This document shows positions 13,837 to 13,986 of a DNA stretch of 64,000 nt, piece after piece. Position numbers and translations under genes: made by a program. The stretch lies in contig JBDRNU010000003.1 in the NCBI GenBank assembly GCA_043810775.1, positions 11,778 to 75,777 on the forward strand, in the 5' to 3' direction. The stretch is from an archaeon. Its GTDB lineage: Archaea; Nanobdellota; Nanobdellia; Pacearchaeales; GW2011-AR1. Every line of letters begins with the position of its first letter. Within the stretch, counting starts at the first letter, position 1. The notes below the pieces were generated by a model, which was given only the letters and a program-made list of their open reading frames with translations, was not told the origin of the DNA and made no database searches.

Positions 13837-13986
13837 ATGATAAACAAAAGAGGATTGAGTAGATAACCTTTAGGAGGTTACCAACTGTCGAGACTAAATC
13901 TTACTTATGTAAGATATTATCTCAACGAATTAACTTCCTACAAGAGTTAGTTAATGATTAAAATGATAAATAAAAAAGGATTGAGT
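13837..13986 (+). repeat. 24-nt direct repeats (13837..13860 and 13963..13986, 22/24 identical) duplicating a pilin start codon region around a 102-nt insert
   Basis: atgataaaCaaaaGaggattgagt versus atgataaaTaaaaAaggattgagt. The upstream copy reads MINKRGLSR then TAA. Confidence 0.85.
13863..13962 (+). repeat. structured three-hairpin element, copy 1 (family shared with 30709..30789)
   Basis: Conserved arms ATAACCTTTAGGAGGTTACCAACTGTCG and AACGAATTAACTTCCTACAAGAGTTAGTTAAT. Hairpins at 13864..13880, 13890..13923 and 13929..13955. Confidence 0.7.

Follow-up and report, generated by a model that had tools for sequence, protein, structure and literature searches.

An apparently genus-restricted three-hairpin element probably entered an archaeal pilin-like gene, duplicating its first 24 nucleotides

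In a 64,000-nt window of a Pacearchaeales genome from a groundwater metagenome (the genome under study, G000; window at positions 11778-75777 of contig C3), the first 24 nt of a pilin-like gene occur twice, on either side of a 102-nt insert that folds into three hairpins. The insert is a copy of a repeat that we call family 1, and the best explanation overall is very probably that this element entered the pilin-like gene 24 nt in and duplicated those 24 nt. The gene would have retained a working start because the insertion duplicated its beginning. G000 (26 contigs, 995 kb, 33% G+C) was compared site by site with the whole 921 kb of G001 (JBDRJD01), the sole other sampled species of the genus, in which the flanking genes are 70-79% identical at the nucleotide level; two relatives more distant than G001 (G012 and G049) were also used. 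Positions are those of the window unless a contig is named, and the features are collected in Table 1.

The orthologous junction of G001 is empty. It reads ...GAACAAGGATAG-G-ATGAGAAGAATTACGGGCAAAAAAGGAGTGAGC, that is, a stop codon (TAG), 1 nt and a single ATG start, with no insert and with the same gene order; in G012 and G049 the junction is tight as well, overlapping in one and 6 nt long in the other. Since G001 has its single start 1 nt after the stop, the upstream copy of the repeat in G000 can be taken as the former start at its original place. Judged from these sequences, the pilin arrangement is a derived insertion, later than the split from the sister species. The initial annotation, made from the G000 sequence alone, had described a pilin-type start 1 nt past the upstream stop that runs into TAA after 9 codons, a second copy (22 of 24 nt identical) 126 nt downstream that opens the intact gene, and a three-hairpin insert shared with a second place in the window (given as 30709, and read here as 30708-30782); all three descriptions were confirmed on reading the sequence. 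It had also offered two origins. The first, insertion with a long target duplication, is supported by the G001 empty site, while the second, a recombination that imported the element together with the gene start, is unneeded and without support. Its remark that the same tight spacing separates the other pilin genes holds for the 14930/14932 junction and not for the remainder.

The repeat exceeds a chance or composition effect. Among ATG-anchored 24-mers of the whole genome, the real start comes nearest to the relic (2 mismatches), followed by a paralogous pilin start with 4 and others with 5-6, which speaks against the suggestion that an AT-rich, Lys/Asn-rich beginning accounts for the likeness. 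A repeat of the pilin score across a 100-nt gap was found at 0.08% of 3,935 random places. The insert itself folds much better than its shuffles (z of -4.5 for the plus and -5.5 for the minus strand), and it supplies the final sense codon and the stop of the relic open reading frame (ORF). Codon 5 of the downstream copy encodes Lys, as in G001 (GKKGVS), and that of the relic Arg. The GAGG that stood in front of the old start is missing in front of the present one, and an in-frame ATG at 13954, within the element tail, could lengthen the pilin-like protein by 3 residues.

The pilin-like protein has an N-terminus (MINKKGLSEVIAYVLLIVIAL) with the look of a class-III signal peptide and gave no Pfam hit at E<=0.001. 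Its homologues occur in 37 of 41 related genomes, within pilin clusters beside a FlaI-type ATPase, and the neighbouring gene (14487-14930) matches Pfam Pilin_N. The product of the upstream gene (13320..13835) had no Pfam hit; orthologues of this gene stand at the same position in G001, G012 and G049.

Family 1 has 24 copies, 16 of them in G000 (where motif search, nhmmer and a covariance model detected 13 full copies, the divergent C7:36856, the truncated C2:22846 with hairpins 1 and 2 only, and a fragment on C23) and 8 in G001. The order is hairpin 1, a linker, hairpin 2 in a long or a short variant, hairpin 3 and often a short tail. Hairpin 1 varies in sequence (AACCTTT/AAAGGTT, CAAGCTTT/AAAGCTTG, ACAAGTTCT/AGAACTTGT, CAGAATTC/GAATTCTG); hairpin 3 is kept within each species, as ATTAACTYCC-N6-GAGTTAGTTAAT in G000, where the tail is GATTAAA or ATTCAAA, and as ATTAACC-N6-GTTAAT or ATCAACC-N7-GTTGAT in G001. 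The pilin copy combines hairpin 1 and the linker of the short-variant (B-type) subfamily with a long (A-type) hairpin 2. The second copy of the window shares hairpin 1 and the linker with it, has a short hairpin 2 and a near-identical hairpin 3, and shows no clear target duplication; the corresponding junction of G001 lacks the element and is filled by about 96 nt of sequence that is unrelated and cannot be aligned.

The fold is supported by covariation. Over 13 copies from both species, the cells of 19 pairs are paired in 92.7% of cases, versus 20-47% when the partners are slid, and 6 pairs, spread over all three helices, have compensatory changes on both sides. Terminal inverted repeats were not seen in 13 copies compared, the first 14 nt matching the reverse complement of the last 14 nt at no more than 7 of 14 positions. 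A search of the window against Rfam 15 gave no hit at gathering score, and the element itself produced only chance-level matches (E>=1, searched to E<=10). BLAST found family 1 in none of 59 relatives other than G001, and the covariance model in none of 200 other genomes of the order. Across 185,579 species, G001 is the sole genome beyond G000 with the exact hairpin-3 pattern, apart from one site that is probably a chance match. By these searches, family 1 is a non-coding, three-hairpin element restricted to the genus. The CUGAUG in the loop of hairpin 2 was considered as a C/D box or a hammerhead core and dropped, the loop varying among copies.

Of the 24 copies, 14 stand between direct repeats of their target sequence, about 3 to 45 nt in length (Table 1); as a measure of chance, a repeat score >=13 is reached at 0.4% of random places. 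G001 is cleanly empty where four of the G000 copies lie (pilin, C4, C26:9971 and C26:7149), and the C7:7052 junction measures 41 nt in G001 versus 205 nt in G000. Counting C7:7052 and a second family at mre11/rad50 (see below), six G000 insertions have an empty G001 site. Conversely, G000 is empty at the sites of two G001 copies, C9:3796 and C19:9204, the latter repeating the pilin geometry, with a duplication that holds the Shine-Dalgarno (SD) sequence and the ATG and an upstream copy left as a 5-codon stump. Empty sites in both directions indicate that the elements moved in both lineages since the split.

The landing sites follow a pattern. Fifteen of the 16 G000 copies are co-oriented with the adjacent gene or tRNA. 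In 8 of the 24 insertions the 5′ end of the element lies exactly after the TTTAAA(T) or TTTATA of a promoter with a B recognition element (BRE) and a TATA box; 0.33% of genome positions are of this kind (P ~1e-14). Insertion there yields two promoters, one before the element and one before the gene, and one promoter (C2:22725-22917) was entered twice in succession in G000, while G001 has a different pair of insertions there. The remaining insertions lie 1-8 codons into a gene (pilin, C26:9971, G001 C19:9204, C9:3796) or just past a tRNA. Junctions were read interpretively in nine resolvable events. At the 3′ junction, the duplication opens with the bases of the element end in about 6 of the 9 (AAT, TTAAT, AGTTAAT, TGAT, GGCT and 14 nt of a preceding copy), a microhomology of 3-14 nt, and in four events a filler of 4-18 nt stands between hairpin 3 and the duplication. 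The 5′ junction has little or no microhomology, yet its place, the base of hairpin 1, varies by no more than 1-2 nt.

Duplicated gene starts also surround other sequences. At the mre11/rad50 junction the initial annotation had seen the same geometry with a different insert, and this was borne out: 15-nt direct repeats bracket a 113-nt insert of a second family (family 2), and G001 has the 15-nt sequence once, without the insert, a clean empty site. In the family-2 insert, two hairpins (TCAGAAATC...GATTTCTGA and TCAAAATC...GATTTTGA) lie inside a promoter-like unit. Read in gene sense, this unit is TCAAGGGAAAGTTAGCCAAG...AAAACCGTTAGGTTGTCAGGC, and in each of the four G000 copies (the others are C8:5033-5141, C25:21125-21222 and C23:5276-5331) an ATG stands 0-2 nt past its end. 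Without the hairpins, the unit, TCAAGGGAAAGTT(TGATAAAG/AGCCAAG)..AAAACCGTTAGGTTGTC, directly precedes tRNA genes and is tandemly triplicated in G001; this distribution suggests a portable module that serves as promoter or leader.

A Zn-ribbon gene start (31224-31298) had been described as a weaker version of the same process, but the process is a different one. G001 has kept the whole arrangement: the two 21-nt AAAATGCC copies, the 33-nt spacer that separates them and a small ORF (MPMSF[Y/T]NLI). The ORF is opened by the first repeat copy in G000 (MPMSFYNLI*) and reads MPMSFTNLI... in G001, where the start seemingly has a third partial unit. On this comparison the arrangement is an older, ancestral tandem leader with no recent insertion, and the repeat may be a leader peptide or a tandem promoter.

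As to the route of entry of family 1, we lean on balance towards an annealing-primed copy-in of the element. A free end of the target strand would anneal to the 3′-terminal bases (...AGTTAAT/GAT) of a single-stranded element copy, the element would be copied as far as the base of hairpin 1, and the second strand would be opened a variable distance away, with fill-in duplicating the interval. The copying enzyme could be a reverse transcriptase acting in trans, in the target-primed manner of short and long interspersed nuclear elements (SINEs and LINEs), or, alternatively, a DNA polymerase that switches template with the aid of shared promoter sequence. Selection would probably then act as a filter, a compact genome keeping those insertions whose duplication rebuilds a start, a promoter or a tRNA end. 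We favour copy-in because of the 3′ microhomology, the filler, the variable lengths, the modular and truncated copies, and the unrelated inserts with the same style of duplication.

A number of observations weigh against this reading. No RVT_1 match over threshold, and hence no candidate reverse transcriptase, was found in G000 or G001, each 80-85% complete (RVT_1 is present in 15 of 41 relatives). No Y1 transposase was found in G000, and the single one in G001 (C33) has GC-rich hairpin ends unlike the element. The 5′ end of the element often lies directly past a TATA box, an implausible transcript start, and this sits uneasily with an RNA intermediate. In the helices, G·U and A·C cells are equally frequent (6 and 6), so neither strand is marked as a folded RNA, and either DNA or RNA could be under the constraint. 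A clear duplication is missing from 10 of the 24 copies, and three groundwater DNA runs, at very low depth, contained the filled pilin allele only and no empty one; among RNA runs, none was found to contain the stretch. Finally, the duplicating step may be a general host process rather than a property of the element, since direct repeats also bracket unique fillers (C3:85253 and C7:46549).

Classical DNA transposition is doubtful, although still a serious possibility. A transposase acting in trans would recognise hairpin 3 and the base of hairpin 1 and cut the target strands 3-45 nt apart, in the way of IS1634, IS1549 and ISH2 in other organisms, followed by gap repair. An enzyme able to recognise both element and target would be consistent with the constancy of the 5′ end and with the sharp preference for the 3′ edge of TATA boxes. 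Also in favour are element ends that vary by 1-2 nt at most among unrelated targets, conservation of the 3′ hairpin within each species, and dispersed copies with empty sites. However, the element lacks terminal inverted repeats, no transposase with matching ends was found in either genome, 3′ microhomology and filler are unexpected from a clean staggered cut, and unrelated insert families and unique fillers show the same kind of duplication. A parent insertion sequence with matching ends was not seen in these 80-85% complete genomes, in which DDE families were not searched one by one. The IS200-like element of G001 was rejected as a parent, its ends being unrelated, and no TnpB was found in G000. 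Two XerA-type tyrosine recombinases of 270-285 aa are encoded in G000 (C6:11712-12569 and C26:739-1551); in a genome of about 1 Mb we would expect one. The second gene lies 5.6 kb from two element copies, and no link between them was shown.

Copying without any dedicated machinery, a sub-case of copy-in, we consider rather unlikely. Here a nascent strand would anneal by microhomology, often in the BRE/TATA region, to a donor, copy the hairpins, leave at hairpin 3 and return upstream of the point of exit. Such a process agrees with the 8 of 24 insertions that abut a TATA box, donors being also preceded by TATA boxes, with the 3-14 nt of 3′ microhomology and the filler, with chimeric and truncated copies (C2:22846, for example, or the mixture of B-type and A-type parts in the pilin copy), with the unique inserts flanked by direct repeats, and with the finding of neither a transposase (in G000) nor a reverse transcriptase. 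It does not account well for 5′ ends that stay constant even at non-promoter targets without microhomology (pilin, C26:9971), and 24 scattered events of one structured family, compensatory changes included, suggest that a recognised structure is under selection.

That the 126-nt arrangement is instead an ancestral functional leader (a riboregulator, a processing site or an internal promoter), its repeat reflecting the Lys/Asn-rich composition of the start, is very improbable. The insert is strongly structured, GGAGG in the loop of hairpin 1 is able to pair with CUUCC in hairpin 3, and some 25 nt separate the A/T-rich 5′ arm of hairpin 3 (ATTAACTT) from the ATG downstream, which would match the TATA spacing of leaderless genes in this genome, such as rpoL. 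Nevertheless, the ancestral leader fails because G001 is empty and the junctions of G012 and G049 are tight or overlapping; the family, moreover, sits at unrelated loci and is restricted to the genus, the repeat is more alike than any other gene start, and no Rfam family matches. A secondarily acquired promoter or leader role of the pilin insert is possible. Intron-like excision of the insert and one repeat from the RNA, restoring the tight operon junction, is hardly credible: nothing direct favours the idea, which stems from the identical sequences at both borders, whereas direct repeats cannot form the bulge-helix-bulge required by archaeal splicing and no ribozyme or intron family was matched. 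An integron attC site or cassette was rejected, the copies being single and scattered between conserved core genes, with duplicated flanks, and the recombinases XerA-type; the ATTAAC/GTTAAT arms of hairpin 3 recall R''/R' boxes loosely.

Table 1. Features of the pilin locus, further family-1 and family-2 sites, and lengths of the direct target repeats around family-1 copies (window positions unless a contig is given)
Feature	Position	Strand	Basis or remark
Upstream gene, pilin-like cluster	13320..13835	+	ORF list; 171 aa, N-terminus MNKRGQFYIV...; stop TGA 13833-13835
Upstream repeat copy ATGATAAACAAAAGAGGATTGAGT, former pilin start	13837..13860	+	1 nt past upstream TGA; sole start of G001 at identical spacing
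Relic ORF MINKRGLSR*, 9 codons plus TAA (13864-13866)	13837..13866	+	Sequence reading
Family-1 element, 102 nt	13861..13962	+	Covariance-model hit 80.5 bits; folds; family alignment; absent at G001 orthologous site
Hairpins of the pilin copy	P1 ~13864-13880; P2 ~13887-13926; P3 13929-13955 (ATTAAC...GTTAAT); tail GATTAAA 13956-13962	+	
Downstream repeat copy ATGATAAATAAAAAAGGATTGAGT, working start	13963..13986	+	22/24 identical to relic
Intact pilin-like gene (MINKKGLSEVIAYVLLIVIAL...), 163 aa	13963..14454	+	ORF list
Second window copy of family 1, short-P2 variant	30708..30782	+	Between GTPase-like gene and next gene; covariance model
AAA_23/SMC_N/SbcC protein (rad50)	46964-49012	-	Domain match
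15-nt repeat with working rad50 start	49000..49014	ATG on minus	ATG 49012-49010
Family-2 insert, 113 nt	49015..49127		Sequence unrelated to family 1
15-nt repeat with relic rad50 start	49128..49142	ATG on minus	ATG 49140-49138, overlaps mre11 stop as ATGA
Metallophos protein (mre11)	49137-50294	-	Domain match
Other promoter-like unit sites	G000 C6:29923; G001 C6:7655-7790, C36:8968-9100, C29:11019		
Target repeat, 37 nt	G000 C16		32 nt without overlap with element end
Target repeat, 30 nt	G000 C26:7149		23 nt without overlap; holds rpoL TATA box
Target repeat, 24 nt	G000 pilin		
Target repeat, 24 nt	G000 C2:22846		
Target repeat, 19 nt	G000 C7:36856		
Target repeat, 16 nt	G000 C26:9971		
Target repeat, 15 nt	G000 C2:22741		
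Target repeat, 15 nt	G000 C2:48935		Takes in 3′ acceptor strand of tRNA-Thr
Target repeat, 13 nt	G000 C4		
Target repeat, 10 nt	G000 C7:7052		
Target repeat, 45 nt	G001 C6:11780		
Target repeat, 25 nt	G001 C19:24509		
Target repeat, 18-21 nt	G001 C19:9204		
Target repeat, ~5 nt	G001 C9:3796		

Several further observations concern the copies and their surroundings. Three long-form copies (C4:12705-12855, C7:7052-7195 and C9:27925-28071) have an extra conserved 80-nt 5′ module (CCCAACAGAGTAGCTCACTGATGTTTCGCTACTCTGTGCCCCAAAAATGCAAGAATGAA..GCATTTTTGCGG) and no hairpin 1, and carry a GGAGG stretch able to pair with the CUUCC of hairpin 3. The tail of the second window copy (30783-30822, ATTCAAAATGATA) is near-identical to the target duplication of C26:9971 (ATTCAAAATGGTA) and starts a 10-codon ORF ahead of the real start; it could be a flank carried between loci or a shared tail variant. 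The idea that flank of the pilin locus had been carried into this copy was weakened, since the AAAAGAGGA...ATG that follows the copy is conserved in G001 and thus native there; this copy and C26:9971 do share the tail ATTCAAAATGRTA.

Other loci in G000 have repeats of a similar kind. Perfect 19- and 18-nt repeats over the SD/start region bracket inserts of 31 and 163 nt, unique in the genome, at C3:85253-85321 and C7:46549-46747, so gene-start duplications are not confined to repeat families. At C2:18848-19011, the 3′ end of tRNA-Ser and its trailer (22 nt) are duplicated around a 120-nt, more G+C-rich insert, parts of which recur on C7, C25 and C5; it probably represents a third family with the same insertion style. 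At C2:4313-4428, a palindromic unit TACTTACATTGTAAGTATT occurs three times in 116 nt, two copies reaching 37 nt.

Family 1 documents a gene-preserving mode of insertion, in which an element that enters a start, a promoter or the 3′ end of a tRNA restores the interrupted part through its long duplication. This mode accounts for decapitated mini-ORFs and tandem promoters in compact DPANN genomes, and bears on their annotation. If the elements carry promoter activity, insertion would be a way to rewire operons: rad50 may have lost its coupling to mre11, and the pilin gene its coupling to the gene upstream. Should the mechanism prove RNA-mediated or a template switch, it would constitute a new class of prokaryotic mobile DNA. 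The further claim that family 1 is the product of an undescribed archaeal mobility route, in which annealing of a target end primes the copying of a single-stranded structured element into the chromosome, either in the manner of SINEs or through template switching primed at promoters, is offered as a speculation and is unlikely as it stands. If true, the element would land by preference on the downstream border of TATA boxes and in gene starts, its long, variable duplications would rebuild the promoter or start codon, and genomes with almost no DNA to spare would in this way tolerate new promoter or leader modules and perhaps make use of them.

A literature search on MITEs (miniature inverted-repeat transposable elements) of DPANN archaea and on long target duplications in archaea found no description of such an element. 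A mobile non-coding RNA family in Pyrococcus abyssi, considered as a precedent, was discarded, as PMC3124441 describes none.

The family does share features with several known systems. Prokaryotic MITEs, such as the Correia elements of Neisseria and SM1-4 of Sulfolobus, are short, non-coding, multi-copy, structured elements able to carry or displace promoters. Family 1 resembles them in its small, non-coding, dispersed intergenic copies, its target duplications and its empty sites in relatives. It differs, however, in having no terminal inverted repeats, a long and variable duplication (~3-45 nt instead of a short fixed one), copies strongly co-oriented with genes, and no parent insertion sequence that we could see. 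Unusually long target duplications of variable length recall IS1634, IS1549 and ISH2, which are autonomous DDE elements with inverted ends and long or variable direct repeats, whereas family 1 has neither a transposase gene nor inverted ends.

Eukaryotic SINEs, mobilised by LINE target-primed reverse transcription with variable duplications of 7-20 nt or more, are similar in being small, structured and non-coding, and in their variable duplication, annealing of the 3′ end to the target, filler and lack of inverted ends; family 1 also has a possible case of a 3′ flank carried along. In contrast to SINEs, it comes with no reverse transcriptase in G000 or G001, no A-rich tail and no RNA-specific wobble signal, and its 5′ end is not at a plausible transcript start. 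Palindrome-associated transposable elements (PATEs) and repetitive extragenic palindromic (REP) elements, which depend on IS200/IS605 and REP-associated tyrosine transposases (RAYTs), insert without target duplication beside a fixed 4-5-nt target. Hairpin-defined ends, the lack of inverted terminal repeats and a strand or orientation bias are common to them and family 1, but family 1 has long duplications, an upstream flank that is variable save for the TATA-edge preference, and no matching Y1.

Family 2 is closest to the putative mobile promoters of Matus-Garcia et al. 2012, reportedly homologous upstream segments before unrelated genes: it stands 0-2 nt before an ATG in 4 of 4 copies and resembles the unit upstream of tRNA genes. 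That study is said to describe no structured element with long target duplications and empty sites. Family 1, by this comparison, is a non-autonomous mobile element whose movement fits no described archaeal transposon, and described archaeal transposon families account neither for its choice of target, at the TATA-box edge and gene starts, nor for the chemistry by which it is joined.

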